From Geosiphon pyriformis uo1 (taxonomy: Eukaryota; Fungi; Glomeromycota): a DNA stretch of 64,000 nt. The notes beneath the pieces were generated by a model. That model saw only the letters and a program-made list of their open reading frames with translations. It was not told where the DNA came from and searched no databases. The first letter of the stretch is position 1, and each line of letters opens with the position of its first letter. The DNA lies in assembly GCA_016748015.1 (NCBI GenBank), contig JAAOMT010000276.1:186001-250000 (forward strand). The letters run 5' to 3'. Below, in pieces: positions 10,155-53,949 of this stretch. The position numbers and the translations under genes were made by a program.

Positions 10155-11135
10155 TGTTACCAGATGAAATTAGAAATATTGTTTAGCATGAAATTACTCT
10201 TATAAATCTTATTATTAATTAGCATATATTATCATTTCAAATTATCACTTATTATAGTAGCAAAATATATCCAAAATTATCATTTAATTAATAACCCAAT
10301 TTGTACATAACACAAATGTAATCTAATTGCAATGATCAATCATGCAATACCCCGAACTATGTAACATTCAAAAAGTTTGCCGAAATTTGTAAGAAATTCA
10401 CCGAAATAATTGATTATTAACCGAAATATCTAATAGTTTGCAGAAATAACTTGTAGTTCACCGAAATATATCTTTAGTTCAGCAAAATTATAGAAAATAG
10501 CAAAGTTCAAGTTCATAGAATAGTGTTATAACAAGTTGTATAAAAGAAAAGCTTCTCTCTTCGAAAAAATATATCTTACTTTAGATTTATTTCTTAAAAC
10601 TGTTTCTATACACACAAAAAGAAATAAACATTAAATAATTCGAAAAACCAAATTCTTTAATTATTGTACCTGGAAAATTCCCAAAACCCAACTAACATTT
10701 CGAAATTGATTAGCTACCAATTTCAGTAAACTGTTAGTAACTCCAGGCCTAGATAGAAAATATTTCCCTCAACAGAATTCTATTTCTTTTACATTTCTTT
10801 TATTTTTATTTTTTTTCTTATTATAATTATTAGGGTAGCCTACAGACAAGATTCCTGTAGAAGAGTTGACTTTTACAGCAAAGTAACTACACATTTTAAT
10901 GAGCTTTCAGATGAGCAATTCCTGGGAAAGAGTTGATGTTTACTACAACGTAATTACACAAAGTAACTGGCACGGAATTGGCTATTCCACTTATAAGCCC
11001 AGCAGTTCAAATTATAGGAGATAATTTGAAGATAAATTCAGTTACTGGAGGTTCAACCACATCCAGAAAACGTGAATTCACAGCAAACAGACATCAACAA
11101 CAATTAAGAAAAGAGACCAAAAACCTCTGGTAACA
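10155..11135 (+). repeat. 5' LTR of element A (981 bp)
   Basis: Terminal inverted repeats TGTTACCAG/CTGGTAACA; direct repeat of 19186-20147. Confidence 0.95.
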
Positions 11136-11150
11136 TTTGGTGCTCTCTTA
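11136..11150 (+). promoter_or_regulatory. Primer-binding site of element A (TTTGGTGCTCTCTTA)
   Basis: TGG begins 2 nt after the LTR end and is complementary to a tRNA 3' end ...GAGCACCA. The same core occurs in element B. tRNA identity (elongator Met or Ile-UAU-like) is not resolved. Confidence 0.75.
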
Positions 11151-11180
11151 TAAAAATAACACAGCAACAACAAATTCAAA

Positions 11181-14100
11181 GTGGTGACCACACCAAATAC
11201 AGCAACTCTAGAGTATTACCAGTCAATTTACACTCACTGCAAGCAAAGATTCAACATTCTAGACGGAATTGAAGTTGTCAAGAAATCAGTATACCAATAC
11301 ATTGAAAACCGCATCAACAATTATCTTTTTGGAAATTACAATATCTCAGAAGTTAGAAGCAATCTTTACAATAATTTAGCACACTATTCACAGTTGAGAA
11401 CTGAAGACCTTAACAGTGAAACATTTGCCACTTACTTTCAAGAACTTAATTTTAACATTATCAAGTACTGTGAAGAAACATATCTAGTGCAGTCTTAATA
11501 CTCTATTGATTTTGAATTGGAAACAGAAACAAGCAACAAAAGCAAACACAAATTGAAGCAATACTCAAAAACCACTCCAAATACTCCAATACTACTAAAA
11601 ACAACTGCCAAACACTTACAAACACCTGAACAAGAAACAAGTTCAAAACTTCCACTCACCATCACATCTTTTCTAGTTTTACTTACACAAGCACAAACAT
11701 CTAATTCATCCTTGAATCGATTTGTGAGACCAGAAGATTTTACATCACTCAGAAGTCCTACCAGACAGCAAGAACTCCTTCAAACTAGTTCCAATCTTCT
11801 TGATTTTCTAGCTGAAAATCAAAGTGAACACTCTGAGACAGCAGCAAATGAAAAAAACAACTCTAAAATAATTGAAGAAGAATCAATAGACAGTAAAAAC
11901 AAAAAAGACAAAATGACAGCATACATCACAAAAATCTCTGAATTTAATGAAGAAAACATTGAGACCAGTCCCCAAGAATAACTCAATTAAGTTACTAAAG
12001 CTGGAGATGCAAATGAATGGAATACTGCCAGAATGTTAAGAACAATTCCTTACTTTTTCAAAGGAACAGCAGGAGAATGGTTTGAAAACTTGGCTGCTCC
12101 ATTCAATGATTAGGATGCTTTCAAAGCAGTCTTCCTTGAACAGTTTACTGACAATAATACCTCCATCACCCTTCGAATACATTTTCACAATATTAAACAA
12201 GAACCCTCTGAATCTGTTATGACTTATATTGGGAAATTCAACAAACTTCTCAGATGAATTCGCCAACTTGAAACTAATGATTATTATTCTGATGCTCAAA
12301 TCTTGGATCAATTTATCGCTGATTTAAAGGATAAACTGATTAAAAAAGTTTGCCCACATGCCCTAGAAGATTTAAACTCTGCCATTCAGCATGCAAAGAG
12401 ATATGAAATGGCCATGGAAGAAGCCAATTGTACAAAACTTGTGAACTTAGCCATTGGAGAAACCAGCTTAGCAGCTGAAGAGAAAATTGACCAACTTGCA
12501 AAGAAAGTCGAAAACTATTTCACCAACCAACAACAACAGCAACCCCAAAGATATCAACCACCCCAAAGACGGAATCAAAACAACTTCACATTACTCTCTA
12601 ATAACCAGCCTCAAAGTNNNNNNNNNNNNNNNNNNNNTAAAAAGGTTCGCTCACATGCCCCAGAAGATTTAAACTCTGCCATTCAGCATGCAAAGAGATA
12701 TGAAATGGCCATGGAAGAAGCCAATTGTACAAAACTTGTGAACTTAGCCATTGGAGAAACCAGCTTAGCAGCTGAAGAGAAAATTGACCAACTTGCAAAG
12801 AAAGTCGAAAACTATTTCACCAACCAACAACAACAGCAACCCCAAAGATATCAACCACCCCAAAGACGGAATCAAAACAACTTCACATTACTCTCTAATA
12901 ACCAGCCTCAAAGTTGCCATTACTGTGGAATCCCTGGCCACTAGAAAAGATATTGCAGAAAGTTACAACGAGATCAACAAAATAGGAGTAATCAACATTA
13001 CCCTCCACCACAGCAATTTTATTATCAACCACCACTACCAGCTTACTATCCACCAAGATCCCAATACCCAAGTAACTATTATCAGTTCACCCCACAGCCA
13101 ATCCAACAGCAATACCAACAACTATCCACACAACATTATCAAGTACCTGCTCAAAGACTAATTACACAAAATCAATTCATACCACAAAACTGATACCAAG
13201 TAAACAACAATAGAATTAGTTCAAACAACCAATTGGTTCCTCAAAATTCTGCCCAACCAAGACCCAACCACTATCACACTCAACCCAGTTATTTAACAAT
13301 ACCTGAAGAACAGAATTTTCACCATACTGCACTCTCAGAAGATAGAGCTACAGCACAACAACAAAACCCTTCCTATACTCCTACCACAATCTCACCAGCC
13401 AGAATTGCTGAAAATGCCAATCTTTCAGATATATTCCCTTTTGAATTTGAAGCAAATGAATCACCATTCTTGTTTAGCAATGCAGCAGCTAATGAGCAAA
13501 AAGCCATCACTGCAATGTACACAGAAGCTAAAGTAGAAAGAAAGTCAATTTGCTTAATCTTAGACAATGGATCCACCGGAAGTATTATCACATATCAATT
13601 AATGCAGCAGCTAAAAAGAAATGTTGACTGACCAGCTCAGACAGTAATCATTACTGCTGATGGCATAAAAAAAACTCCAGTAGGAGAAATTGACAATTTT
13701 CCGTTCACTCTTGATGGAATTATCATTCCAGTCAAAGTTCTTGTAATAGATGCTCCCCAGTATTAAGCCCTTATTGGAAACAATTGGCTCCAAAAAGCCA
13801 ATGCAAAATTAGACTGGAAAACCCAAAAACTACAAATCTCTTACCAAGGACAACATGTCCAAGTACCTACCACTTGTGGTACATTTAACAAATGCTCTAA
13901 AAAAGCCCCGGCTTTTGAATTTAAACCAGAAGAAGAAAAACCAATAATCGAAACATTCATGACTTTTGGATCAACGTCCAATTGGGCCAATGAAACTGAA
14001 CAAGAACATTTTACACCACACTCCAAACCTGAAACCCCTGGATGGAATATCTCTTACTCAAAGCCTGAACCAAGGAAACAATGCCCCTACATTCCCCTTA

Positions 14101-16943
14101 AATATAAGGACTGCTGCAAGAAACTATTGTCAATGGGAGCCTGCATTTCACCTGAAGAAGAATATGAAAATCATACTTGTTATTACTACAAGGCTTGCCA
14201 CAGAAAACGATGAGGCCATCTAATAAAAAGAAGCGGAAAATGGGATAACACACCTTGTTTGACTTGTGGAGATATGCTACCAAAAGAATGCAATTGGATT
14301 GATGTAGCAATGGCTTTAATCAATGGAGCCACTCAAGAAAATGTTTGTCAAATGAAAGAATCAGAATACATTGCATATATTTTTGAAATCGCTGGATACA
14401 ACTATGAAGATGAAGTAGAAGTATATCACCAAATTGCCAGTCATACTTATCTGACCAAAAAAGCTCAAGCTCAACAGCTAGAGCAAATAAACGTTAAATT
14501 GTGTGAAAAATGCATAATGCCCTGTGATGAGCAATGGTGCCCTGAATGCTATGCTCTTAGCATTCCCTTACCCAGTGAAAACGATGAAAACAAAATTGAA
14601 TTTGGAGAACCTGAAGCAACAGAAGAAATTGAAACAATACCTATCTATCTTATCAAAAGTCAATCTGCCTTACAACTCAAATACTTCAACAACAACAGAC
14701 AAGGAATAAAACCCGAAAAAGCACATAAAATTGATGCTGGATATGACCTAAGATAACCAGACAAAAATATTCTCGTTCTCAAACCCAAATCTCTCACAAA
14801 AATCAACCTCAAAATTGCACTCAAAATTCTGCCAGGAGCAATGGTTCAAATTGCCTCCCGGTCCTCTCTGGCAAGCAAAGGAATCAATGTTAAAGGAGGA
14901 ATAATCAATGCTGGATATACTAGAGACATTACAGTGATGCTTCAAAATGAAACTGACAAACCATTCAAGATTGACCATGCTGAAAAAATTGCCCAAGCTA
15001 TTTACCTACCCCTAATCAACATTTTGAATTTGCAACTAGTTAATCAAAGAGAACAATTAGGAAAAAGCAATAGAAGAACCCAAGGTTTTGGTTCAACTGG
15101 ACAATTCACAGTTTCAGTTAATATAGCTCTTATCACACAGAATAAATTCCACCAGATTCTCAGACTTCCACAACCAATTACCATCTCACCCTTTGGAGAA
15201 CATCTGGAAATTTACACCTGCCCAAAGCCAACAACCATACAACAAATTTTTGAGTCCAATGACCAAGTCTGCTTGGAACATAATATTTCGATCTCAAACA
15301 TTTATATTCCAGAAGGAACAAAGAAAGTCTGAGTTACTTTTTACAATCCCAACAATTACCCCATAGTTCTATTAAATAACTTAGAAATTGGAGTCATTCA
15401 CAGTAACATCTTTCAACAAGAACTACCCCAGACAGTTCCCAATTTTTTGGAAATTATTGGACATTCACTACCAAAAATCAACCCAAATCCTAGCTCTGAA
15501 AACTACTATGTTGTCATGGAAAAATTATCTCGAATCAACATGGGACAATTTGAACCACAACAACGGAGCCAGCTCAAAGAGCTAATTGCAAAATTTGCCA
15601 ATATCTTTGCTGAAAACAACAATGACTTAGGAAGAACCAATTTGGTCCAACACCAAATTTATACAGGAGATGCCAAACCAAGAAGACAATAAACATATCA
15701 AGTTGCTCCAGAAAGCCACCAATTCATCCGAGAAAAAGTACAATAAATGCTTAACAATGAGTTCATCCAACCCTCCATGAGTCCTTGGGCTTCACCTGTA
15801 GTGCTAGTTAAAAAAAAAAATAGAAAGATATGATTTTGTGTTGACTATCAACAACTCAACAGTGTTACAATTGGAGATGCCTACCCTCTTCTCTGAATTG
15901 ATAACATGTTAAATGCCCTTGGAAAATCCAAATACTTTTCAACACTAGATTTAGAAAGCGGTTACTGGCAAGTTGCTATGGATCCCAAAGATCATCCCAA
16001 AACAGCATTTACCATCCAAGATAGAAATTACGAGTTCAATGTAATGTTTTTTGGATTATGCAATGCACCAGCAACGTTTCAGAGATTAATGGATGTTGTG
16101 TACCAAGAACTCCTTTGGAAGTCAGTAGTCATTTACCTTGATGATACTGATGTTTATTTTCTATTGTTCAAATTACACTTAAAACACCTGTGAGAAGTTT
16201 TTCAACGATTATGAAAAGCAGGACTAAAACTCAACATCGAAAAATGCTACTTTGAAAAAACAAGCTTGGCCTTCCTTGGTCATATCATTAGTAAAGATAG
16301 AATCAAACTGGACCCAGGAAAAATCAGTGCTGTCAAAAACTTCAAAACTCTTCGAAACACTACAGAACTAAGAGGATTTATAGGGTTAGCCTCCTACTAT
16401 CGGAAGTTTATCAAAAGATTCTCAGAAATCACAAAACCTCTCAACCAGCTTACCACCAAAAATGTCAAATACAAATGGACTACTGAATGCCAAAATGCAT
16501 TTGAAATCCTCAAAGAAAAACTAACAACAGCTCCAATTCTTGCCTGCTCAGATTTCAGCAATCGATTCCGATTAGCAACAGATGCCTCTTATACTGCCTT
16601 TGATGCTATCCTATCACAATTGGATGACAATGGAAATGAGTGAGTAATCGCCTATGCCAGCAGAACATTAAAACCAGCTGAGAAAAATTATCCTACCACA
16701 GAACCAGAAACAACAGCCGTAATCTGGGCCCTATACCACTTCAATCTTTATCTCAGGCCTAAAAAATTCGATATTATCACTGATAATATTGGACTCAAAT
16801 GGCTTCAGAACAAAAATACTTAGCTGAATGCAAAACAAATTCAATGGACAAGATTTCTAGCAAACTATCAATACATAGTACATCACAAACCAGGAAAACT
16901 CCACATCAATGTTGACTGTCTCTTTAGAATGAGACAAGATTAG
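11181..16943 (+). pseudogene. Element A Gag-PR-Cys-rich-dUTPase-RT-RNase H polyprotein, single frame with nonsense stops
   Basis: All ORF-track pieces fall in one frame. CHYCGIPGH..RYC knuckle; LILDNGS protease; dUTPase AGYDL/SRSS/GIINAGY/RRTQGFGSTG (~14680-15100); RT DLESGYWQ, FGLCNAPATFQR, YLDD; RH TDAS...NVDCLFR. Confidence 0.92.
12618..12637. other. Assembly gap (20 N) flanked by a ~280-bp duplicated gag segment
   Basis: About 12340-12617 is repeated at 12638-12914 on the other side of the N run. Confidence 0.9.
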
Positions 16944-16994
16944 AAAACACAAAAACCAACACTCAATTTAACCAACCAAAACAGCCAACAAACA

Positions 16995-18380
16995 ATGAAT
17001 TCAGAAAACTACAACAATTTCAAACAATATTTGAAAACATTAACCATCCCAACAGATTGGTCTCCAGATGAAAAACATTGACTACAACAACAAGCCAAAC
17101 AATATTTTCTACATAACAACATTATTTATTATTAAAATTTCAAAAACTCAGACAAACCACTCAGATTAATACAAGAACAGAAAAAAGAGACTATATTATA
17201 CAACATGCACTCAGATTCTTCATCAGCACACTTTGGAAAAGATAGCACCACCCAAAGAACACTAGAATACTACTTTTGGTCTTGAATGAGAAAAAACATT
17301 CACGAATATGTCAAATCTTGTGATAGTTGTCAAAAAAAAGAAGGAAAACGTCCTACTGAACTATTAAATCCAATCAAAGTTGGAAAACCCTTTGACCGAA
17401 TTGGTATCAATTTAGTCAGACCACTATCTATCACCATTCAAGGAAACCATTATATTGCAGTAGCTGTAGACTATCTTACTAAATGGCCTAAAGCCAGAGC
17501 CATTCAACGAGCAGATGCGAAATAAGTAGCAAATTTCATCTATGAAGACATCATTTGTAGACATGGATGTTCAATTAAACTTTTATCCGATCAGAGAACA
17601 TACTTTGTAAACAACCTGATACAAGAAATTTGCAAACAATTCAATGTCAAAAGACTGCTGTCTTTGCCCTACCATCCACAAACAAACGGACTTGTGAAAC
17701 GTTTTAACAGAACATTGTGTGAGTCATTAGCCAAAATCTCAACCAATTTTGAGCAAAAGTGAGATATCTTTATTCCATCAGTGTTACTAGCATATAGAAC
17801 ACTAAAACAAGATACCACAAAACACACACCATTTGATTTAACTTATGGAAGGACAGCAACATTACCAATTAGTTTTACAGTAGAAACATACCCAGCACAA
17901 CCAATCAATAAAAACTATTTCCAGAAAACACTACAACGAAGAGCCTACATTCTGCTTAGCACATTGAAAGGAAAACAACGAATAGCAGCAACTCATATTG
18001 AACATTCTCAAGCTCAACAAAAAGAAAGACATGACAACAAATTACCATCTATTACCAATAAATTTAAAGTTAGAAATAAAGTTTTCTTACACAAAACTAA
18101 AGCTGAAAAACAATGGAATGGAAAATTTGAAAATAAATGGGATGGACCATTCTTTATCCATGAAATTCTAGGCAACGGATCATACAAGCTAAGACTTGAT
18201 GACAAAATCCTAGCAAAAGTTGCACATAGAGATCGTTTGAAACACTATAATTCCAGAAACAATCCTGAACCATTAGTTCCACAAATTGGCATACATTCTC
18301 CTTTAATCAATCCTGAAGATATTCTCTGGAATTTAGAACCAATAATTGTCATTGAACAACCTCCCAACTTGAACACTTAA
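16995..18380 (+). pseudogene. Element A integrase (HHCC, DDE core, GPF/SH3-like C-terminus, no chromodomain)
   Basis: ATG MNSENYNNFKQYL; HSD...HFG...CDSC; RIGINLV, VDYLTKW, SDQ, YHPQTNGLV; KWDGPFFI; tail LEPIIVIE. Confidence 0.88.
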
Positions 18381-18497
18381 TTTAAATTTATCATTATAGT
18401 TATATCATTATAATTTAGAAACAATCTTACAAAAACAAAACAAAAATAACATAAAAACCCATACACCAAAAATAATTTTCTTTTCAAATCTCTTATA

Positions 18498-19174
18498 ATA
18501 ACTATTCCTCAAAACATTCAACAATTATCCCAAAAACTAATATTAGCTTTAAAAACAATACCCGAATTATCTATTACTGTTATTGAAAACCACATTAATT
18601 ATACCCAAACAGAAGTAGTCACAAATTTAGCCCCAAATTCACGAAAATATCACCCATATAAGAAGAACACAAGAAGTTATTCTGGAATTCACCTGCCAGA
18701 ACTTTTAAAGCTTGCTTTAAGAGAAAATTTAATGTTCACTCCTATTAGTATTCTACCAAATGCTACTATTCAACAAAAACTTCAACTGTGTCTTAATAAA
18801 GAGAACCATGACTATACTCCAATATATAGATATTTCTACATTGAAAAAACACTTCACGAATGAAAACAAAAGCTTACAGCAGCAAACCTCACAAAAGAAG
18901 CTATTCAAAAACAACTTCACAACAAATTTAAAACAACAGCTGGACCTACAAACAGTTGCTATAAACTAAGAGCTGCTTTTAGACTTTATGACCTATTCCA
19001 CACCTGTAAAAACGTCCTACAAAACCCAATTTTACAACCTTTGAAGATTCAATACATCAGAAAGCTTACAGAACTGAAATTTCAACAATTTTCAGACCAA
19101 ATTTCTTCAATAATTTTGGATTATTATCTGGAAATTACAGACAGTACTTGGACTTCAATGGAGTTCAGTCTTGA
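18498..19174 (+). pseudogene. Element A ORF3, unknown soluble protein in the env position
   Basis: Hand translation from ATA (probably a former ATG): TIPQNIQQLSQKL...YRYFYIEKTL...TKEAIQKQ...LRAAFRLYDLFHTCKNVL...IQYIRKLTELKF. One internal TGA. Homologous to element B ORF3. Confidence 0.75.
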
Positions 19175-19182
19175 GGAGAAGG
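19173..19182 (+). promoter_or_regulatory. Polypurine tract of element A
   Basis: GAGGAGAAGG ends 3 nt before the 3' LTR. Confidence 0.8.
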
Positions 19183-19185
19183 TTA

Positions 19186-20147
19186 TATTACCAGATAAAA
19201 TTAGAAATATTGTTTAGCATGAAATTACCCTTATAAATCTTATCATTAATTAGCATATATTATTGTTTCAAATTATCACTTATTACAGTAGCAAAATATA
19301 TCCAAAATTATCATTTAATTAATAACCCAATTTGTACATAACACAAATGTAACCTAATTGTGATGATCAATCATGCAATACCCCAAACTATGTAACATTT
19401 AAAAAGTTCGCCGAAATTTGTAAGAAATTCGCTGAAATAATTGATAGTTCGCAGAAATAACTTGTAGTTCACCGAAATGTATCTTTAGTTCAGCAAAATT
19501 ATAGAAAATAGCAAAGTTCAAGTTCATAGAATAGTGTTATGACAAGTTGTATAAAAGAAGAGCTTCTCTCTTCGAGAAAATATATCTTACTTTAGATTTA
19601 TCTCTTAAAACTATTCCTATACACACAAAAAGAAATAAACATCAAATAATTTGAAAAACCACATTTTTTAATTATTGTACCTGGAAAATTCCCAAAACCC
19701 AACTAACATTTCGAAATTGATTAGCTACCAATTTCAGTAAACTGTTAGTGACTCCAGGCCTGGATAGAAAACGTTTCCTTTGACAAAATTCTATTTCTTT
19801 TACATTTCTTTTATTTTTCTTTTATTTTCTTATTATAATCATTAGGGTAGCCTACAGACGAGATTCCTGTAGAAGAGTTGACTTTCACAGCAAAGTAACT
19901 ACACATTTTAGTGAGCTTTCAGATGAGCAATTCCTGGAAAAGAGTTGACATTTACTACAATGTAACTACACAAAGTAACTGGCATGGAATTGGCCATTTT
20001 ACTTATAAGTCCAGCAGTTCAAATTATAGGAGATAATTTGAAGATAAATTCAGTTACTGGAGGTTCAACCACATTCAGAAAACGTGAATTCACAGCAAAC
20101 AGATATCAACAACAATTAAAAAAAGAGACCAAAAACCTCCAGTAACA
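19186..20147 (+). repeat. 3' LTR of element A (962 bp)
   Basis: Direct repeat of 10155-11135, lacking one ~20-bp U3 repeat unit. Confidence 0.95.
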
Positions 20148-27100: not shown

Positions 27101-30100
27101 AAACAATTATATTATTTGACTCATTTTTTATAAGACACTCACTAACATAACCAAATTCACTAAAGCAGTAATCAAAAAAAAGATAAGAAGTCAAAATACT
27201 ATTATCAACCAAACTGCTGTTTTTAATAAACTTAGCCAGCAAACTAAACCAATTAGAAATCAAATTCTTGGAATCCAGTCTTTTTTATCTGCAAAAATTG
27301 CTTTATATAAAACATATGCTATAATAATCCAAAAGTTGGTTTGCAAAAATAATACCAAATCTTTTTAGCAAGCTTATTACATTTAAATACTATTCTAAAC
27401 CTAAAACATCTATAACAGTAATATTACTATTAACTCAAAAAACATTTGGCAGATTATTGCTCAAGAATAACCTACACATTGTCAGAGTGTTGGTTACATT
27501 AACCAGAAAGCAATTCATGGAATTAATTGACAATATGGTCAGAAAACACAGAAGTTGTTAAAGTATTTAGTTAACAATTTGCAAATTTATAGCTTTGTGT
27601 TTGAACAATCTGCCAAAAATACCATTTAAGTTGGCAAAGACTACCAAATTTGTTAAAAAATTTTCAGTTTACATCTGCTTGAATGTTTTAAAACTATACA
27701 ATTCAGAATAAAAAATGGCTTTATTGAAAAAATCTTTAAGTAAATTGGTCTTAAGCTTAAGCTTTTTCCTTAATATTTTGTTTTACTTTTTACATATATT
27801 TACTAAAACATGACTAAACTGTAATCTGTAACCAATTATTGGCTACAAAACAGCAAACACCAGATACAGAAACTGTTTATTAGATACAGCTTTCTATAAA
27901 ACCAGATTTGTGAAAAATTTGATATCTGAATAAGTTTTGATAAGATTTGGTTTAGAAAGACCATTAGTAAACAAAAAAATACCCCAGTATTTATGAGATT
28001 TATTCTTCTTAGCTATAAAAATATTCAAACTACTTATCAACAAATAAAAAACTCTTATTCTTTGATTAATAAGTATAATAATTGTTTTATCTATATTAAT
28101 AAAAATATTATTGATTTAAAAAAATTTATCAGTTATGTTCAGAATATACTAAGTAATAAACATGTTATTCTCAATCCAAATTGTATTATCTACAAAAATA
28201 TCTGCTACTAAAAAAAATGTTTTGTTACTCCAGAGATTTTGTTTGCCAGTTTATGTAAAAATTTTTAAATCTAATCTGTAGTTATATAAATTGTCATGTC
28301 TTTTAATTTCACAAAGCAAGAGATCATAAAAGATTCTTCACAGTAATAACAAGAAGACCTTATTCTGATCTAGCTTATTATGAACAGTATACCTTTTAGT
28401 GAATCCAAAATCTGTTATTACTTGGTTGGTTTGATTATTATATATACTCTTAAAAAACCCAATAAAACAGAAACACATCTTAATCTTAATTAAACTGTTT
28501 TTTAAATAATCTTATTAAATAGAATTGTATGTTTTATGTATATCCTAGAGAACTGGCTATAGCTTTTTGTTCTTTTCCAATGTATTTTTAATAACAAAAC
28601 CAACAGCAAAAATAGAGATCTGAGTGAACATGACTTTTAAAACTGAAAAATTTTTATCATATAAAACATCAAAATTACTATAAATCAGAAAAATCTTATT
28701 TAAAAGAATCTTAAATAAGATTTTTCAGATTGTTTTAATTAAAGTTATTGGTCTGGTATTTATAAAAAAATTTTTTTAATTATATAACTTTGGTATTATA
28801 GAAATTTAGACTCTTTTCTACTGTATGAAAACTGTACTTAACATTAAACACATATTGAAAATATTCAACAAACCACTTAGAATCTGTTTATTATCATGTT
28901 TTCAGAGCTCATTAGAGATATCAAAAAAACCAATGGCTTTTCCATCAAATAGATTTTTGACAACTTTTAAAAACTTATCAAATTTAATATTACACATTAT
29001 TTTTAAGAAAGCATTATCATTGATATGCTTTAGAAGCATATTGATTAAACTATTAATTAGATAAAACACTATGCATTACACATTTTTTCATCTATTTTTT
29101 TATAATTGTGTTAATTGTAGATTTAATTTTACATGGCTCTAGAATTAATTTATTATTAATTACCAAATAGTTGAATATTATTTTTTAAAATGGCCAATTC
29201 AAAACACTTTTAATCATTTTTTCTTTATTAGAACAAAAATTGTTTATATATCTGTTTATAAGCTTTTTAATAAGATTATCTTTGACAATCTTAAATTTAT
29301 AATACTTAGATTTATGATACTTTTTTTGATTTTTGACAAATAACATAGAATTTTCTCTAAATTTTTGCTCTTATTAATTATAATACACACTTTAAAGACT
29401 TTTTTTATTAATGATAATCCAGATATTAATGAGACAATTAGTTTTTAAATTTTGATATGATCCAAGCTTCTCATAATTTTGGCCACTAATAACTTTAACT
29501 TGAAAAACTTTAATAATTGCATATTTTTAAACATTCAAAATTACTAAACCAAAATTGAGAAAATACTTTATTAGTAGAGCTTACTACTACTTTTTTTATA
29601 ATTTTTTACATAATATTTAAATTACTACAACTTCTTGCACTATTGAATTCAGTTATTTTTTTCAAAAATCTGTTTAATGAACACACTCTGAACTATGATT
29701 ATTTATTGTTATCAGCATTTTTAATTCTGAACTTCTATTTATTTTTATTAGCCTATTTATGATCATTATTAAAATGAATATTTAAAAGACTGCTCAAGTC
29801 AATTGCAATTGAAACTGCTTTGTAATTGGTATTAAAAAACTCAAACACAATATTAACTTTATGATTACTATAAATATTAATTTTTGGTTTACAAAAATAA
29901 AATCAATGATTTTTTTGATGTCTTTGGAATTGCTTCAAGTAGAAGTCTTGAATAATAAATATTTACTAAAAGAGTTGATTAATCTTAAATCTACACAAAA
30001 TCTGAAATTTGCACTCTTTTTTAAACCATTTTTATTGAAATTTCTATCCAATATCACAAAAGTACTGAAGTTAACTATCTTGGTAATAAAAGAATTAACT

Positions 30101-30802
30101 TTCAATATTTGGCCAAATCTAATCTCAATAGAAACACCAGCATATAAACCCAAGATTATAACTAACAATTTACTCTTAAACAAAAGTTTTATTAAAATAA
30201 CTTAACCAGAAATTTTTTCTACTTTAAAAACATATTGAGCCAGCAAATTGTTCATAATAATAGCCACTCTAGCACCAAGAAAACTTTTATTTAAACCAGA
30301 CATAAAGATTCACACTTTATCAAATTTGCTTATAATCTATAGTTTGATATTAGACTTTAAATTTGTTTTTGTAATGATTAAAACCATATTATTCAAATTT
30401 ACATACTAACAAACAATGTTTTCTTGCTTAGCAGAGATATTAAAACTCCAAATATTACAAGTTAGAAACTTTCAAACTAGATTATTTATTGAAATAAAAA
30501 AAATATTAAAAAATCTGAGCTAGTGTACAACTGATCTAATTTCATTAAAACTGAGTCAACAGATGCTTTAAGGACTATTAATTTCGACTATAGACTGTTT
30601 ATCTTAGTGGTTAAAATTTTTGAACTATTTAGACCCAACACTGAGGTTTTAGCTTTAACCAGAAAAAAAAATAGAAGCAAAACCTGCAAATTATTCAAAA
30701 CCATATTTGAATTCAAATTCAGACTAAACTGATACATCTATTAGAATCTAAAAAAAAGAAAGAGAAATCATTGGAACCAAAATCATACTGCTGAGTTTAT
30801 GT

Positions 30803-31814
30803 TGTTACCAGTAGAATTTTAGCTATTAATTAGCATAAAATTACCCTTATAATTCCTATAATTAATTAGTATATTAATATTATTTCAAATTATTATTTAT
30901 TATTTAATCAATTATCACATATCACGATTCAATTAAAATAATCTAATTAGTATAACAGAAAGTAGGATGATCAAATTACACAATACCCTGAACTTTGTAA
31001 CATTCTAAAATTCGCCAAAATTTACAGAAATTCACTGAAATTTATAAGAAATTCGCCGAAATTTACAGAAATTCGCCGAAATTATGAATAGTTCACCCAA
31101 ATTAATCAATAGTTCAGCGAAATAACTTGTAGTTCATCAAAATGTATCTTTAGTTGCCGAAATTTGAGCAAAAAGAAAAAGTGCAAGTTCATAGACTAGT
31201 ATTACAACAAGTTGTATAAAAGAAGAGCTTTTCTCTTCAAGAAAATGTATCTTACTTTAGATTTATTTCTTAAAACCATTCCTATACACACAAAAAAAAA
31301 TAAATATCAAATAATTCGAAAAACCAAATTCTTTAATTATTGTACTTGAAAAATCCCCAAAACCCAACTAACATTTCGAAATTGATTAGCTACCAATTTC
31401 AGTAAACTGTTAGTGACTCCAGGCCTGGATAGAAAACGTTTCCCTTAACAGAATTCTATTTCTTTTACATTTCTTTTATTTTTCTTTTCTTTTCTTATTA
31501 CAATTATTAGGGTAGCCTACAGACAAGATTCCTGTAGAAGAGTTAACTTTCACAGCAAAGTAACTACACATTTTTAGTGAGCTTTTAGATGAGCAATTCC
31601 TGGGAAAAAGTTGACGTTTACTACAATGTAACTACATAAAGTAACTGGCAAGAAATTGGTCATTCCACTTATAAGCCCAGTAGTTCAAATTATAGGAGAT
31701 AATTTGAAGAGAAAATTCAGTTACTGGAGGTTCAACCACATTCAGAAAACGTGAATTCACAGCAAACAGATATCAACAACATTACAGAAAAGAGACCAAA
31801 AACTTCCAGTAACA
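30803..31814 (+). mobile_element. Solo LTR related to element A (1012 bp)
   Basis: TGTTACCAG...GTAACA ends; perfect 4-bp TSD ATGT (30799-30802 and 31815-31818). The 3' two-thirds is near-identical to the A LTRs, while the U3 portion is more diverged. Confidence 0.93.
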
Positions 31815-32446: not shown

Positions 32447-33510
32447 TGTTACAGGTAAACTTGGTGGGTATGAAAAATGGTAACATTTGGTGCTCTCAAT
32501 TATGGATGATGCATCTTCTGCGTAATTCTGTTGGCTTAGTCTTGATTATCAGTCTCTAAAAGTCTATTCTTGGATGTGAATTTACCCGTTGAGTTCTTTG
32601 GTTATAAGGCACAGAGTTTGTTTTTTGTCGATTACAACGTTTTTTGTAAATATGAGCTTTCTTCTCCGAGCTAACGAGCGCAGTCGTTAAGATCTGGTGT
32701 TGTCTTTTCACCCTTCTGGTAAGCTAACAAGATAATGTTAATATCCAAAACTTAGGAGGAGCTTCCCTCTTTTACCAGGCTATCACAAAGTTTATTCCCA
32801 GACAGTCGATTTTACTATATTGCCACTCCACAAAAATAAGACAGAAAAAGAAAGAAAAAGAGAAAAAAAAGATAAATTAGTATCATCAATTACCGTGATC
32901 AAGAGCGATTGGTCCAAATTGTTAATAGGTTCAAAGCGGTTATGCTAAGAGCATCTGTCCTAGAACGGAGGTACAAGACAAGGGTTAATTCATGTAAATT
33001 CCATGAAGTTCGAGAACATAAATTCATGATTCTGATTTTTTTTTAATAATTGGTTTATTTCAAAAGATGAAATAGGGAAGATAATAAAGAATGAAAATGT
33101 ATAGATATTTAATTCTTATTTAGAGATTTGTATTTATCTGTCTGTCTTTTCTCACTTCTATAACTACTTGCTTTTATACATTCTTTTGGTTTTACAGGAT
33201 TGCTTTCAATTGTTTTGCTATCGCTAGCTATTGCTTTGTTGTTTCTGTTATTGCTTCGTTTTTCTACATTATCACTAGTTATTCTATGTTATAACACATT
33301 ATCTGATGTTATTACATGTTATTCTGTGTTATCCTGCATTATAACATGTTATCCTACGTTATTGTGCACTATTCTGTGTTATCCTGCATTATAACACGTT
33401 ATCCTATATTATAATATATTATTCAATGTTATTGTGTGTTATTCTGTGTTATGTCATGTTTTGGTCACGTTTCTTCATAACTTTGGATCAGTTTTTCTAT
33501 TTGGGTAACA
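32447..33510 (-). repeat. 3' LTR of element B
   Basis: Direct repeat of 41518-42581, preceded on the - strand by the purine tract AAAAAGAGAGGGA. Confidence 0.95.
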
Positions 33511-33524
33511 TTATCCCTCTCTTT

Positions 33525-34259
33525 TTAAAATTGAGCTTCTGTAAAACTGTATGTATTTGTTATTGTGGCTTTGTTCATGTAATGTTCGATTGTTGCCTCG
33601 AGTATTGCCTTTTGTAGGTCTTTGAACTGTTGATTGGTTATTCGTCCTATGTTGTTAACTATTATGGTTTTCATAAATCCGTTCAGTAGTATGTTTGAGC
33701 AATGTTGAAAGATGGCATATAGTCAGTATGTTGCTTTGTAATATAGGGTCAGGTTGTTTTTCCTTATAAATTTTTCTACTTGTTGTATTGCTTCTTTGTT
33801 GAATGTTTTCTGGCTGAGGTCTTTGTATAGTGTTTTCAAGTCAAGCTGTTCTCCAATTTTGTAGAACCAATAAGCTGGAGAAAGTCTTTTTTTCCATTCC
33901 TGGGCATTGTCAGGTGTCCACTCCCCTGTTTTGGGGAGTTCGGTCCTACGAGCTAAAGCTTCTTTTATTTCTTTAAGCTCGGGGACCAAGTATCTTCTTT
34001 TGTAACCTTTTTCTTGTTCTTTGCCTCCTTCTTTTCTACCTTCCACTTGAAGGCAATTTTTCCTCCAACATTGTCTTTCGGGTGGTGGGTAGAGAAGGAA
34101 ATGTTTAGTTCTAATTGAACTCTTGTCCTCCCCTCTCCTGCTCTTATCTTTGTACCGTATCTCTTTTTTATCAATTGTTATTTCTATTTGAGATGTCAAT
34201 TTTTGAATTGTTTCAAATAATTGTTTAGATAATTTTAAAATTTGATCTGAAAGGTTCAT
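33525..34259 (-). pseudogene. Element B ORF3 (~244 aa, one internal TGA)
   Basis: MNLSDQILKLSKQL...YWFYKIGEQL...NKEAIQQV...YKATY*LYAIFQHCSNILLNGFMKTIIVNNIGRITNQQFKDL...SFTEAQF*. The stop abuts the PPT. Confidence 0.8.
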
Positions 34260-34339
34260 GTTGAAATTTCTATCGTTTTTTGCTGCTTTTTGGATGCTAT
34301 ATATATTTGAATTCTCCAATTTAATTTGCTGTCCATTGT

Positions 34340-35707
34340 CTACGTTTTGATAACAATGATTGGTTCCAGATCTTGTGGTATATCTTCTGGTCTGATTAAT
34401 GAAATTTGTGTTCCTAGTTGAGGTACTGATGACAATGATTCCTGTTTTTCATGATAAATTTTTAACCAATTTCCATGCACTACTTTCTTTAAAATCCTGT
34501 CTTCCAATCGTAATTTGTAAGCTCCATTTCCTAACACTTCATGTATGTGGAATGAACTGTCTCACTTTGGGTTGAACTTTCCACTCCATTGTTTCTCAGC
34601 TTTTGTACGATGTAACAGTACTTGGTCTTCAATCTTGAATTCCATTGGTTGTTCTGATAGGTGTTTATCATGTCTTTTTTTTTGTCGTTCTTGAGCATGA
34701 TTAATATTGTCAGCTGCTGTTCTTCGATTGTTTTTCAACGTTTCTATTAGCTGGTACGTTTTTTGGTGTAAAGTAGCTTCAAAATTCTCTTCATTGATTG
34801 TTTCTGTTGGGTATGACAGTATCACTTGTTCAATTGGTAACATAGCTTTTTTTCCATAGACTAGTTTAAACGGTGTAAACTGAGTCGTATTTTGTTTCAA
34901 TGTTTGGTATGCAAAGAGTACAGAAGGTATAAATAAGTCCTATTCTTGTTTGTTTTTATGACTTATTTTTGCTAGTGCTTCGCACAGTGTTCTGTTAAAT
35001 CGTTCTACCAGTCCGTTTGTTTGTGGATGATATGGTGACAATAAAGGTCTCTTTATTCTAAACCATTGGCTTAATTCAGTCAGCATATTATTAACGAAGT
35101 GTGTTCCTTGATCAGATAATAATTTTTTCGGACATTCATGTTGGCAAATTAAGTCTTGATGCACAAATTTGGCTACTGTTTTGGCATCAGCCACTTGGAT
35201 TGCTCTGGCTTCTGGCCATTTTGTAAGATAGTCTACAGCTATAGCGATATAGCGATTTCCTTGGGATGTAACTGAAAGAGGTTTAACCAAGTCAATCCTA
35301 ATTCTATCAAATGGATTTCCAACTGGAATGGGTCGAAGTGGTTCTGTTGATCTTGCTCCTCCTCTTCGCTGGCATGCGTCACAATTGAGCACATATTTGA
35401 AAATGTCTTTGTATATCATTGGCCAATAGTATAAGTTTAGTGTTCTTTCGAGAGTAGCATCTTTGTTAAAGTGTCCTGCAGTCAGATCTGAGTGCACACT
35501 ATATAATATAGTTTCTTTTTTACTGTTCTTGATTAGTTATTGTGGGTTGGGGTGGTTTTGGCATTCTCGTCAATATAGTTGGTTGTCTTGAATAAAATAA
35601 TTTCAGGCTTGTTTTTATATGGTACTTTGTTCCTGTTGAGATAATATTTCTTTGAAACATAGTGTTAATAGGTACTGATGTAGTCGTTGATAAGTGAGTG
35701 TGTTCAT
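34340..35707 (-). pseudogene. Element B integrase
   Basis: ATG MNTLTYQRLHQYL; HSD..GHF...CDAC; IDLV, VDYLTKWPEA, SDQGTHF, YHPQTNGLVERFNRTL; tail LEPIIVI. Confidence 0.9.
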
Positions 35708-35717
35708 GGGTCTGGGA

Positions 35718-38700
35718 TTAGGTTTGTGGCATCTTCAACAAACTGTCAGCATTGGTGTTCTTGGATCTTTCCTTGTAATGGACTTTGAGTGGGAATTGTT
35801 GTAAATAAGTACTCCATCTCGCATATTTTCCTTCTAGTTGTGGATTGTTAAGTAACCAAATAAGTCCTTTGTGGTCAGTATATAGGTCAAATGGTTGACT
35901 AAAGTAATGTTTCCAAGTCTGTATGGCCCAATAAATGGTGAGACATTCCAGATCTGTTGTGTTGTAATTTTTTTCTGTTGGGCTAGTACTGCGACTAGTG
36001 TAGACAAATGGATGTTCTCTATTGTCCAGTCCTATCTGTGATAAGACTGCTCCTAGAGCATTTTTTGAGGCCTCCGTAGTGACAATAAACTGTTTAGTGA
36101 AATCTGGGTAAATTAGGATTGGGAATGTGATCAATCACTGCTTGAAATAGTCAAATGCTTTCTGTTGATCTTCCTTCCACAAGTACAGTACGTATTTGGA
36201 CAACAATTGATGGAGTGGTTTTGCGATGTTTGAGAAACCTTTGACAAATTGATGATAATATCTTGCCAATCCTAGAAATTTTCATAATTCTCTGAGGTTA
36301 ATTGGGGCTAGAAAATCCTTGACTTTTTGTACTTTATCTGGATCGGGTTTAACTCCGTCTTTGCTGATTACATGTCCTAGGAATTTTAACTCAGTTTTTC
36401 CAAAAAAGCACTTCTCGGGATTGAGTTTCAATCTGGCACTACGAAGGTGTTCAAAGACTTGTTGCAGGTAAAGCAGATGGTCTTCGAATGTTTCGGAGAA
36501 CACATTTGTGTTGTCTAAGCAGACTACTACTGATTTCCAGAGAATTTCTTTGTATACTACATCCATCAGGCATTGAAACATGACAGGAGCATTACAAAGT
36601 CCAAAAGGCATTACGTTAAACTCAAAGTTTCCATTTCGAGTGGTAAACGCTGTTTTTTTTTGTCTTTGGGGTCTATTTCAACTTGCCAGTAACCACTTGC
36701 TAAATCTAATGATAAGAACCATTTCTTTTTCCCTAGATTGTTCAGAATTTCCTGGATGAGGGGAGTGGGATAACTATCTCCTCATGTGATGCTATTTAGT
36801 TTTCGATAATCTATGCAGAATCGCACTTTTCCATTTTTCTTGGTGACCAAGACTACTGGAAAAGACCAAGAGCTTAACAATTCTTTGATTAGGCCGTTAT
36901 CAAGCATCCGTTGCACTTCTTGCTTAATTAGATTATCGCCAGATGGGGGTACATGGTAAGTTCATTGCTTAATTGGTCAAGCATCTCCTGTATCAATCTG
37001 ATGCTTTACAATGTCGGTGCGTCTGAACTCATTTTTACTGGCAAAGACATTGGCATACTGATTCAGAAGGACTTTGAGTTGCATTTGTTGCAGGGTACTT
37101 AAATTTCCTAAATTCAATTTATTGATCTCTTCTGGTGTGAACAAGTAACTTTCTTTTGGCAAATTCCATACTTGTGAGGTAATGTCACAGAATAAGAATA
37201 ATTGTGTGAAATCTGGAATGGACTGGGGTTTTTCAGGATTCTGAATATCTGCGGATATGGAACTGACGAAGGTCCCTTCGGGGATTTCAATGACATCTTC
37301 TATCGGGTTGTGGATGGGGATTTTGAAGTGTTTATGGGCTTTGGCTGGTAGGTATAAATTAGCAACATCAGCTAAGGAACAGATTTCAGGACTGGCTTTG
37401 AATAACAGGGCTTGATCTTGGATTTTTTGATTCACCTTGAGGATGTATTGTCAGTATGAAGGAATGGAGATGACGGTGTCAGTGTTGATAAATTCTATCT
37501 GATCACTGTCTTCCTCCGTGAAATTAACTGGTATGTTTCCTCTTCCACTTGATCCAAACCCATTGATTTCTCAGGCAGTGAGGCCTAACTCTTCTCAGGT
37601 TGTTACCGGGGTTAATTGGGGTATTTTGACTAGAGGTAGGAAGATAGCTTGGGCAATCTTTTCTTGTGATTCTATTTTGTAGGATTTGTCCAAATTGTTC
37701 TGTAGCATTATGATGATGTTTCCCATGTAATCAGCATCAATGATTCCTCTTTTTATGTCGATTCCTTTCTTGGCTAGACTAGATCAAGAGGCAACTTGTA
37801 TCATTGTACTAATAGGAATTTCTAATACTATCTTAAGATCTATTTTTACAAAGGAATGTGGGGCTATAATGATGGGTAATTGTCCAGGGTATCATAAGTC
37901 AAAACTGGCATTGGTGTCATGTGCTCTTTCGGGGCAGATTCCTTCCTCGTTGTCACTGTACCATTTTAGCTCTAGTTCTTTGGATAGGTCAGAATATGTG
38001 AGATACTGTTCTGTTTCAGTATCCTCAGTTGGATCTTGAAATGACATGTCCTCGGTGATCAATACCTCTTCTTCGGGCTCAGGTAATTTAGTGATTGGAA
38101 ACAGTATTCTTGGAGGCAGATTGAACATGAGATCACATTCGTCGCAGTACTGGAAGTGACAGGGGATCAAACAGTAATCGCACAGTTTGGTATTCAAATC
38201 GGCCAACCTTTGCTTCTGTTCTTCGCAAGTTGGGACCAATTCCTGATATCAGTTTTGAAATGCATCTGGGTCATCTGTGAAGAAATCATCCTCGGGGTAG
38301 TTGGGTCCATTATATTTGGGCATCCAAGGGTTGTCTTTGATTTCTTGTATTTCTTCGGACATGGCACCTTTGGCCTTGGCGCTTGCCATTCTCCAGATTT
38401 TGTGGTCATCATATAGATAACTATCCAGCTTGTTGAGGGCTCATTTCCAAGCGTCCTTGATGGGGGTTTCCTTTCATACCCAATCGTTGATTAATATGGT
38501 GTATTGACAAGCCTTGTCGCATGTTCCTCTTCTGCCAGACACATTATTCTAAAGTCCTTTATCTGGCAGGATTTTGCCACATGCGAGGCATGGCATGTTG
38601 TTCTATTTGTCTCGTCGTTTTGGTCATCCAAATCTTTCTAGTAAACAAGGTCTGCAATAATATTTGGTGGCGGTAGGCCATTCTTCGTTGTCCCCAATAT

Positions 38701-41455
38701 ATGCACTCATAGTGGATAGTTTTTTTCCACAATTAACACATATTAGTCTTGGGGGTTGGTAAAATAAGTTTTTTTGGTCCGAGGTTACGTATTCTAGTGA
38801 TGACAATTGGGGTTCTTCTTCAGCTCTGCCTTTTCCTTTTTCTTCTCAAGTTGGTGGTGTGGGTAGTTCAGTTCGATAATCATCCACCCATGAAATTTGA
38901 TAGGTCTCGATGGTTGGTGGCATTGATGTGTCTTCAAATTCAATAAGGGGTTCCTTGGTACATTGGGTTTTAAAGTGTCCGCACATAGCTGGGACTTAGG
39001 CATGCTGTTCATTGAACATGAGTTAAAGTTCTTGGGTGTTCCAGTTGAGAGTAGTGTTGGCTTTTGACAATCAATTGTTTCCTACTAGAGCTTGATATTG
39101 AGTAGCTTCCATGATGAGTACTTTAGTAGGGATTTGGATTTTATTAATCTTGAAGGGGAAGTTGTCAATTTTTTCTATTGGGGTTTTTGTGTTTCCATCT
39201 GCTGTAATGATTTGAGCAGTAGCAGCATGGTCTACTCGGTGACCTAGTTGGTCCATGAGCTGCTTCATGATTATGCTACTGGCTGATCTGCTATCCAGGA
39301 TTAATTTAATGTCTATTCCTCCGACTCTGACATTGGTGTATAGGGCCATTATTGGTTTATCCTGATTGATGGCTGCTTCACTAAAAAGGCTATGGATGTT
39401 CAAATTATCAATGTTAAAAAGAAATATGGTGGCTAGGGTGGTGTCTTCAGTAATAGTGGCTGGTGAGATATTGCTTTTTGTTTGCTTGGAAGGTTAAAAG
39501 ATTTGTTCTATATCCCCCTCTTCCACAGGTGTAGATTTATAAAAACCCAGTTGGTATTGGTCAAGATTGGGCAGGACCACGAAGGATTAGTCGAGACAGT
39601 TCACTGTTGGTTTGCACCTGATTGTTGTTGGGATTCCTCCATCCCTGATTATAGTCTATAGCTCGAGGTCTGGATAAACTGTAAGGGGAAGTTTAATAGT
39701 GAGGGATTGCTTGTGTCATTGGTGGTGGTTGATAATAATTCTGGGGTGGTGGTTGAGTATACGGGACTTGTTGTGCATATAAGGGTGGTTGATTCTGAGG
39801 TATGGAATATTGGGGTACCATGTTTTGCTGATATCTGGGTTGCTGGTATGGGTTTCCTTGATTTTGGTTCATAATCTTCTTTTTGCAGTCACGGGCAATG
39901 TGTTCAGGTTTTTGGCAGTAGTAACAGTTGTGGAGATCAGATCTTCAAGGTTGTTGCTGTTGTTGACAGTTCTGTTGCTGTGGGTATCTGCTGTTGTTGT
40001 TATTTTCTCTCCATTGGGGTGGTTGGTAAGTTCCTGTAGTTCTGGCTAAGAATCTCTCAATTTCTGAGTTAGTTTCTCACTCAATTGGGTTATCTTTGTG
40101 TTGATGTCAGAGGTTCTATTAATGGCTAAATTAACAGCTTGGGTATGGTTCGCTTCTTATTTTACAGACTCAAAATCGTGAGCAAGAGCAATGGCATCTT
40201 GTAAACTGGTCGGATGGCGGGGTCTTATGGATCTTAGAATACTACTCCGCAATCCTTTAATGAATTGATTAAAAACTTGTGCTGTGGTGTAGTAGTCTCT
40301 TTCAATAGCTAATATTTGACGCAGGATTTGATTGAATCATCCGAGATAAGTAGTTACTGCTTCGTAATCTTTTTGTTTAATTATGCTGAATTGCAATTGG
40401 ATTAACATATTGGGGTCATAGAAGTATTGCAGAAATGCAAGTTTAAACTCAGTAAAGAAGGTAGGCTTCTTTGCCAGGCTCTGGTACCACGAATTGGCAG
40501 TTCTGGTTAAAAAGAACGGCAGTGCCTGAATTGTGCAGTCATTGTTCTAATCATTAGCGGTAATTGCTTTCTCGGCATTTGTGATCCAAGAATATGCATT
40601 ATCTTCTTCACCAGAGAATTTTTCCAATTTAGTAATATCCCAGTAAGCCATGATCCAGTTAATAGGTGAGATGTTACTGGTTATGTTTAAAGGGATTGGT
40701 GTTTACGTATTCAAGTGTTCTCCAGGTGCTAATGCTGGTTGCTTTCCTTTGTCGCTTAAACCAATAGGTTGTAAGATAGCTGTTTCTTCTATTAGGGGAG
40801 ATGCTGATTCTGTTAGGTTTTGTGCTAGTGGCTGTTCCCAAGTTGATGAGTTTTCTTCTGTTTGACCAGCTGCTGGAGTAAAATTTCCAAACAGTGATCC
40901 ATATTTTCCTAGTAATTTGGTCTAACTGTGTTGATTCCAAGGGTGTAGATTTCCAGGAGTTCATGATGTTTTTGACTGGGTTTCCGGGGGTGGGTTGAAT
41001 ACAATTCTACTTTGGAGTGTCTGATGATATGATGGAATTGTTGGGGAGAGGATTCTTGGTTTCTTATTGACTGTGAACTTGGCTTGGGCAGTTACGGGGT
41101 TGTTGGATTTGTTTTCATATTCCTTAGAATCGAATTCTACTGATTGTTGTACTTGAGGGAATTGTTGTGTCACATAATATTTAATGTCTGTATTGATTAT
41201 GCGCAGAGTTTCAGCAATTGTTCGGGTAGTCGTGGCTGTTGAGTACCCTAGTAAGCTTTGATGGATTTGTTTTCCAAGTCTTCCTGTATCAGTTGCGCAG
41301 CCTAACAAGCAGTCAATTTTTGCGTTGATATAGTTACAAAAATCACTTTCTGCATAAGTGGTTTCTGCTGGTATTCCTAGATCTTTTCGAAAGTATTGAA
41401 ATAGTGCTTTTCTGTATGAAGAGTGGTCCTTTCCTATTGTTCCAATAGTTGCCAC
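35718..41455 (-). pseudogene. Element B Gag-PR-Cys-rich-dUTPase-RT-RNase H polyprotein
   Basis: Zn knuckle at ~39885-39930; LILDSRS protease; dUTPase ASFDL, GIIDADY, GFGSSG (~37545-37960); RT MPFGLCNAP, CLDN (decayed YLDD); RH TEAS..YTDHKGL..NADSL. One slippage frameshift in the A-run at ~36655. Confidence 0.9.
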
Positions 41456-41498
41456 TTTTATGTATTTTTGGGGGTGCTCTATCTCTGTGGATTTATAA

Positions 41499-41515
41499 CC
41501 TCACAGGGAGCACCA
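41499..41515 (-). promoter_or_regulatory. Primer-binding site of element B (TGGTGCTCCCTGTGAGG)
   Basis: Starts 2 nt after the 5' LTR. Its complement CCTCACAGGGAGCACCA looks like a tRNA T-stem/acceptor 3' end (elongator Met- or Ile-UAU-like). Confidence 0.8.
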
Positions 41516-41517
41516 AA

Positions 41518-42581
41518 TGTTACAGGTAAACTTGGTGAGTATGGGAAATGGTAACGTTTGGTGCTCTCAATTATAGATGATGCATCTTTCGCATAATTTT
41601 GTTGGCTTAGTCTTGATTATCAGTCTTTGAAGATCTATTCCTGGATGTGAATTTACCCGTTGAGTTCTTTGGTTATAAGGCACAGAGTTTGTCTTTCGTC
41701 GATTGCAACATTTTTCATAAATGTGAGCTTTCTTCTCCGAGCTAACAAACGCAGTCGTTAAGGTCTGGTGTTGTTTTTTCACCCTTCTGGTAAGCTAACA
41801 AGATAATGTTAATATCCAAAACTTAGGGGGAGCTTCCTTCTTTTACCAGGCTATTACGAAGTCTATTCCCAGACAGTCAATTTTACTATGTTGCCAGTCC
41901 ACAAAAATAAGACAGAAAAAGAAAGAAAAAGAGAAAAAAAAGATAAATTAGTATCATCAATCACCATGATCAAGAGCAATTGGTCCAAATTGTTAATAGA
42001 TTTGAGGCAGTTATACTAAGAGCATCTGTCCTAGAATGGAGGTACAAGACAAGAGTTAATTCATGTAAATTCTATAAAGTTTGAGAACATAAATTTGTGA
42101 TTCTGATTTTTTTTTAATAATTGGTTTATTTCAGGAGATGAAATAGGGAAGATAATAAAGAATGAAGGGGTATGGATATTTAATTCTTGTTTAGAGATTC
42201 ATATCTATCTGTCTGTCTTTTCTTACTTCTACAACTACTTGCTTTTATACATTCTTTTGGTTTTACAGGATTGCTTTCAATTGTCTCACTATTGTTAGCT
42301 ATTGCTTTGTTGTTTTTGTTATTGCTTCGTTTTTCTACATTATCACTAGTTATCCTATGTTATAACATATTATCTGATGTTATTACATGTTATTCTGTAT
42401 TATCCTGTATTATAACACATTATCCTATGTTATTGTGTGCTATTCTGTGTTATCCTGCATTATAACACATTATCCTATGTTATAATGCATTATCTAATGT
42501 TATTGCACATTATTCTGTATTATGTCATGTTTTGGTCACGTTTCTTTATAACTTTGGATTGGTTTTTCTACTCAGGTAACA
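41518..42581 (-). repeat. 5' LTR of element B
   Basis: Direct repeat of 32447-33510. Confidence 0.95.
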
Positions 42582-53895: not shown

Positions 53896-53949
53896 TTTTT
53901 GGATCAGCCCCATCCTAATCGTACTTTTCCTTTGCCTTTTGATTCCACC

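Follow-up and report, generated by a model that had tools for sequence, protein, structure and literature searches.

A conserved non-Env third open reading frame in dUTPase-bearing Ty3/gypsy retrotransposons of Geosiphon pyriformis

True retroviruses carry accessory genes at the 3′ end, downstream of env, among them foamy virus Tas/Bet, human T-lymphotropic virus (HTLV) Tax, human immunodeficiency virus (HIV) Nef and mouse mammary tumor virus (MMTV) Sag. Nef and Sag overlap the polypurine tract (PPT) and U3, and Tas and Tax activate the long terminal repeat (LTR). Conserved extra open reading frames (ORFs) are also known from LTR retrotransposons, and few of them have an assigned function. In the interval from pol to the 3′ LTR, plants have sense, env-like ORFs and antisense ORFs, and the Botrytis element Boty has an antisense one (PMC7264820). 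The sense additional ORFs (aORF-3S), such as the env-like ORFs of Athila, Bagy2, SIRE and the errantiviruses, recur in the majority of the copies of their family (PMC7264820). Enzymatic, non-Env ORF3s (GDSL esterase, DEDDy exonuclease) occur in dUTPase-bearing Ty3/gypsy lineages of bdelloid rotifers (PMC5408684), and in a survey of fungi the typical ORFs are gag and pol (PMC3248453). Here, we describe ORF3, a third ORF found in two full-length LTR elements, A (forward strand) and B (reverse strand), in a 64,000-nucleotide stretch of the Geosiphon pyriformis uo1 genome (the window; assembly GCA_016748015.1, contig JAAOMT010000276.1, positions 186,001 to 250,000). ORF3 is a real, selected and undescribed non-Env family, an accessory gene that selection maintains throughout a lineage of fungal Ty3/gypsy retrotransposons with a dUTPase.

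ORF3 shares its position and strand with the aORF-3S class. However, it lacks a transmembrane domain, belongs to fungi and, in certain lineages, extends beyond the PPT into U3, whereas the described sense ORFs are env-like (PMC7264820). The brtn ORF of Boty/BcGypsy1 likewise lies between pol and the 3′ LTR of a fungal Ty3/gypsy element (PMC7264820; 10.1101/2021.04.13.439636), but it is antisense and from an ascomycete, and no ascomycete is among the ORF3 homologues whose names were looked up; the two are set apart by description. Unlike the rotifer ORF3s, neither the two window copies nor 19 further family members contain a GDSL, DEDDy or other enzyme family or catalytic motif (Pfam, E ≤ 1), and no homology to Tas/Bet, Tax, Nef or Sag was detected. 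The family is soluble and without a library family or fold match, in contrast to the env-like and enzymatic sense ORFs and to the antisense fungal case. No published description of it was found in the library searched, which excludes supplements, and the available parts of the Gypsy and LTR literature found for G. pyriformis describe no ORF3.

The initial annotation had aligned the ORF3s of A and B, and their homology is significant. The core aligns by BLASTP (28/110 identities, E 3e-6), the Smith–Waterman score of 87 exceeds the maximum of 75 from shuffled sequences (0/2000 as high), and comparison of family-A and family-B profiles with hhalign gives 95.8% and E 7.1e-9 over 101 columns of the core. 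An N-terminal module that BLASTP missed aligns between the profiles at 60% (E 8.6e-5, 0/547 shuffles as high). The short motifs originally quoted are present in both proteins. A search of the six frames of the window with a family hidden Markov model found no ORF3 loci beyond these two.

The two ORFs end differently (Table 1). ORF3 had been placed between integrase and PPT, which is correct for B, whose C-terminus, SFTEAQF*, directly adjoins the PPT. In A, the frame crosses the PPT and takes in 32 nt of the 3′ LTR, with its TAG stop at 19215-19217, and the full-length relatives of A likewise end in LSLEEEVMLP..., which is the translated PPT and LTR start. The end previously assigned to A, DFNGVQS* in a shifted frame, is therefore not its terminus, as the ORF stays in frame throughout. 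Its likeness to TEAQF* arises because a conserved DNA motif before the PPT is read in two different frames, one in A and in L001, a related metagenome contig, and the other in B. B ORF3 has an intact 244-aa relative, P0004, with 83% identity.

Table 1. Features of elements A and B in the window
Feature	Position	Strand	Description
B ORF3	33525..34259	-	244 codons, ATG to TAA; one internal TGA (codon 179); stop just before PPT
A ORF3	18498..19217	+	239 codons; start now ATA (ATG in relatives); one internal TGA (codon 122)
B PPT	33511..33524	-	sequence feature
A PPT	19173..19185	+	inside ORF3; codes EEK/EEE motif
DNA motif just 5′ of PPT	19160..19172	+	conserved in A, B, L001 and L002; read in different frames
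B spacer, integrase stop to ORF3 ATG	34260..34339	-	A-rich, 80 nt
A spacer, integrase stop to ORF3 start	18381..18497	+	117 nt
A 5′ LTR	10155..11135	+	92% identical to A 3′ LTR; then PBS-like TGGTGCTC; 4-bp flanks CTGA/CTAA
A 3′ LTR	19186..20147	+	U3 with 20-bp x2.5 repeat at 19428-19478
B 5′ LTR	41518..42581	-	91% identical to B 3′ LTR; then PBS-like TGGTGCTC; 4-bp flanks ATGT/ATAT
B 3′ LTR	32447..33510	-	TGTTAC...GTAACA; U3 array 10-bp x17.5 / 50-bp x2.9 at 33278-33452
A gag-pol	11136..18380	+	gag, protease, dUTPase, reverse transcriptase (RT), RNase H (RH), integrase; single frame; 28 stops / 2426 codons
B gag-pol	34340..41517	-	Ty3 capsid, protease, dUTPase, RT/RH, integrase with SH3_Tf2-1; stops and frameshifts
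PBS, primer-binding site.

The position next to integrase is not peculiar to the window. Contig L001 (3713 bp) encodes RT, RNase H and integrase (with two stops), after which, beyond a spacer of 316 nt, comes an intact ORF3 of 230 codons that runs across the PPT into an LTR. Its integrase is 55-58% identical to those of A and B, and its ORF3 28%. This independent element bears out the linkage to integrase, and ORF3 adjoins integrase in all three elements for which DNA is available. Two further proteins, P0188 and P0220, share the read-through peptide end, implying from their sequences that they probably occupy the same position across the PPT. Integrase C-terminal motifs are also present in 18 of 39 B-type gene models.

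The suggestion that ORF3 is kept under selection is upheld by its pattern of divergence. A frame of 220-245 codons stays open across lineages that are only 16-37% identical, with 0-1 stops compared to 11-27 in the other five frames. Fixed differences between subfamilies A and A2 are under-represented where the outgroups are conserved (11/65 vs 23/66, p 0.028), and most of them, 40 of 52, are conservative. Third codon positions are saturated in two of three pairs and protein scores lie above all nulls; because alignment itself biases the codon-position test (null pos2 0.49-0.51), the test is read only for its excess and for saturation at third positions. It could be argued that ORF3 is a passenger, a once-captured host gene or a neutral frame that is open only through hitch-hiking and overlap with the cis signals of the PPT and U3. 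Indeed, neither window copy is intact, the final codons coincide with a motif at the DNA level, and in family A the mismatch among copies shows no trend from column to column (0.10, 0.10 and 0.11). This flat variation is neutral decay after insertion. The persistence of the frame and the avoidance of conserved columns speak against a passenger, as do a confident AlphaFold2 (AF2) fold and the lack of a host homologue outside transposable elements (TEs) among 20 divergent matches looked up. Such an origin is thus very improbable and largely refuted. The ratio of nonsynonymous to synonymous substitution (dN/dS) among copies is confounded because the genomic copies are dead and decaying by C-to-T transitions, and a value near 1 would therefore not refute selection. 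A DNA sequencing run, X1, yielded 11,097 short contigs for the B stretch and 12,009 for the A stretch; these are too fragmented for dN/dS, and the run may itself derive from the source sample.

The protein had been described as helical, basic and without a transmembrane segment. The AF2 model is indeed a soluble helical domain, in which the N-terminus forms a conserved amphipathic helix and a β-hairpin. The protein is predicted to comprise a small module of a helix and a β-hairpin (residues ~5-40) and a compact, helical core (~80-205), joined by a variable linker. A basic character holds for the window copies (pI, isoelectric point, 9.4 and 9.6) but not for the family, since the pI is 5.2-9.7 in nine intact homologues. 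Maximum 19-residue Kyte–Doolittle means are 1.04-1.07 in the window copies and 0.44-1.33 in the nine homologues, with no transmembrane-like segment. A divergent Env or env-like membrane protein might be expected from the position after pol, and a single-sequence search with B did match HIV gp120 (E 0.0031, residues 115-177). This match vanished with family profiles and was rejected. The nine homologues have no furin motif (R-x-[KR]-R, 0/9) and only 0-3 cysteines, inconsistent with a Cys-rich ectodomain, and the soluble helical model is at odds with gp120, which is β-rich. Pfam, PDB sequence, profile and fold searches of ORF3 found no Env or known TE domain. The non-Env assignment thus stands, and an Env identity is extremely unlikely.

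The named relatives closest to both ORF3s, among the matches listed, are G. pyriformis gene models, with up to 83-88% identity. A search with B gave 39 proteins, all from G. pyriformis, and a search with A gave 195, of which the 120 listed are all from G. pyriformis and 29 are full-length (235-245 aa, with a true start). A profile search of 1.84 billion representatives gave 74 matches, 56 of them new; the 20 most divergent of these comprise 17 G. pyriformis proteins (lineages C, D, E and B2) and three metagenome proteins. A further search added four metagenome proteins, two of which head clusters of 30 and 6 members. No named fungus other than Geosiphon was found among matches whose names were looked up. 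In the ESM Atlas, 25 of 30 matches are listed in clusters without a name, the best mostly from Mucoromycota (0.90), which is a lead to a wider range and not evidence for it. A search of the Atlas with P0004 found no match. Lineage representatives are mostly 14-42% identical, the exceptions being A/A2 (67%) and X1/X2 (64%). The tree places B, C, D and E on one side with support of 99/99, and the lineages that cross the PPT form a single group with only 42/0. The subgroup found by the further search is homologous over 182 columns (97.7%, profile comparison). This subgroup (P0218, P0221, P0222, P0223 and clusters; 30 + 6 + 2 members) is seen only on short metagenome contigs (745-2228 bp where listed) and lacks the PPT read-through tail; it may be stand-alone, or belong to another element or an RNA segment. 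Many G. pyriformis “hypothetical” models are chimeras in which ORF3 has been spliced on to integrase, to gag or to unrelated sequence nearby, and one, P0015, fuses an A-type with a B-type ORF3.

Library searches offer few clues to function. There is no convincing Pfam family in the two window copies and 19 members (E ≤ 1), and no match to a PDB sequence with profile A1. Profile A9 had a single PDB match, to a ryanodine-receptor chimera (E 0.0015, N-terminal half), which the fold searches did not support. NCBIfam FtsQ, found in 6 of 25 members, all of family A (best E 5e-4), was rejected for not spanning the whole family. An unnamed PHROGs family, phrog_23683, was matched by 7 of 25 members (best E 4e-4). 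No ORF3 or integrase relatives were found in viral_contigs or genome_contigs, and none by tblastn of phages and plasmids. The remaining leads are weak and helix-turn-helix (HTH)-like. The motif order Y-x2-IG-x2-L ... G-K ... R-L-Y-x2-F aligns with the N-terminal domain of YhcG/DUF1016 and with ParB/KorB over 53-61 columns. Profile–profile comparison with the YhcG/DUF1016 domain, a hand-picked target, gives 20-22% (E ~1e-3, 1/477 shuffles as high), and neither the window copies nor the 19 members reach its Pfam gathering score. ParB/KorB helix-turn-helix folds appear weakly over the core, and profile comparison with a 7-sequence ParB/KorB alignment gives only 0.1-0.2%, which does not indicate homology.

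One Atlas match, to a filamentous RNA-virus coat protein (0.91), raises the idea of an RNA-binding or structural accessory protein, either a captured coat- or nucleocapsid-like protein or an RNA export or packaging factor, that would coat the element RNA or aid particle movement through the coenocytic hypha. However, the match has only 138 of 256 features in common (true family matches mostly have at least 170), its recognition is below threshold, and no viral coat family was found in 19 members in Pfam at E ≤ 1 or in fold searches. P0221 was not found in viral_contigs, and contigs in its source collection are mostly short anyway. We consider such a role unlikely.

A and B have paired LTRs with common TGTTAC...GTAACA ends, a PBS, a PPT and target-site duplications, as expected of Ty3/gypsy elements; the 4-bp flanks of each differ by a single G/A. 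The domain order is gag-protease-RT-RNase H-integrase (Pfam, in A with X at stops, and in L001), with a dUTPase between protease and RT at 14700-15100 (+) in A and 37550-37940 (-) in B. In both, a Cys-rich insert of ~300 aa without a Pfam match precedes the dUTPase. No literature on dUTPase-bearing Ty3 elements of Glomeromycotina was found in the library searched. Both elements are dead and subject to cytosine-driven decay: differences between paired LTRs are nearly all transitions (transitions:transversions 53:2 and 92:3), the observed/expected CpG ratio is 0.19-0.40, and transitions occur at 11/42 and 16/60 CpG positions, a rate above that of other contexts. The gag of A contains a 277-bp direct repeat (99%) around a run of N (12341-12914), probably a scaffolding duplication. 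An additional LTR at 30800-31814 (+), 82% like that of A and with a 20-bp x3.8 repeat in U3, has no ORF3 upstream; its start translates as an A2-subfamily ORF3 ending, suggesting a solo LTR of A2.

The last domain of the integrases is SH3_Tf2-1-like, and Pfam detected no chromodomain in them, whereas the majority of Gypsy elements in fungi have one (PMC3248453). ORF3, adjoining integrase wherever DNA is available, might be a targeting factor, or a cofactor of integrase, that anchors the intasome to chromatin as a substitute for the chromodomain. This is quite unlikely, since ORF3 lies outside Pol, in a frame of its own beyond a non-coding spacer, its divergence is about twice that of integrase, and there is no evidence of a partner.

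The VANDALs, DNA transposons of plants, provide a working model for another kind of function. In Arabidopsis, they encode VANC, a fast-evolving anti-silencing factor that acts with family-specific tandem target repeats (PMC5735166). The roughly twofold divergence of ORF3 relative to integrase, together with lineage-specific U3 repeats, matches what is reported of VANC proteins and the tandem repeats they target (PMC5735166). No sequence likeness to VANC was detected, and the comparison is by the repeats, which are a correlate only: intact ORF3 members come from several lineages, and each lineage has its own U3 repeat, in family-specific arrays. By this analogy, ORF3 may be a sequence-specific self-regulator of its own LTR, transactivating or de-silencing it, a role that we propose tentatively as plausible. 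The soluble helical protein would bind repeats in the U3 of its own element and so switch on or de-silence the LTR promoter, and the conserved core helix N-x3-[RK]-x5-R-L-Y-x2-F could be the recognition helix of a predicted HTH-like unit. ORF3 would be translated separately, from a subgenomic or re-initiated message, across the A/T-rich spacer of 80-316 nt. Protein and repeats would co-diverge fast, in a VANC/VANDAL-like manner, under host cytosine methylation; arbuscular mycorrhizal (AM) fungi methylate TEs and make TE-derived small RNAs (10.1101/2021.03.30.436303).

Fast divergence relative to integrase would also suit a protein-level counter-defence, in which ORF3 suppresses RNA silencing or another host restriction by binding proteins or small RNAs and not U3 DNA. 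A position across PPT/U3 is also that of HIV nef, and small RNAs are found at Rhizophagus TE loci (10.1101/2021.03.30.436303). However, Pfam and fold searches gave no similarity to characterised suppressors, and counter-defence leaves the weak HTH-like leads unexplained; we regard it as improbable.

The rest of the window contains a DDE_1 transposase fragment (E 1e-18) at 54770-55606 (+), with an upstream 57-bp tandem array at 53577-53956, and dispersed repeats that are 67-68% identical (21652-22258 / 29891-30497 and 4070-4480 / 9561-9971). Five stop-free frames on the reverse strand, at 45731-47683, 47953-48924, 57460-58446, 58484-60076 and 60085-60897 (650, 323, 328, 530 and 270 aa), match no Pfam family at E ≤ 1e-4.

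For G. pyriformis, the 39 and 195 matches mean that many of its “hypothetical genes” are retrotransposon ORF3 copies. With less assurance, a fungal Ty3/gypsy clade may possibly have become “complex”, with a transactivator or anti-silencer of its own lineage and a new HTH-like fold that reads the repeats of its own LTR. If self-regulation is true, a Tas/Tax- or VANC-like regulator would have arisen independently in an Env-less LTR retrotransposon. ORF3 may also be relevant to the expansion of LTR elements reported in Geosiphonaceae (PMC11952901), which such self-regulation could explain.
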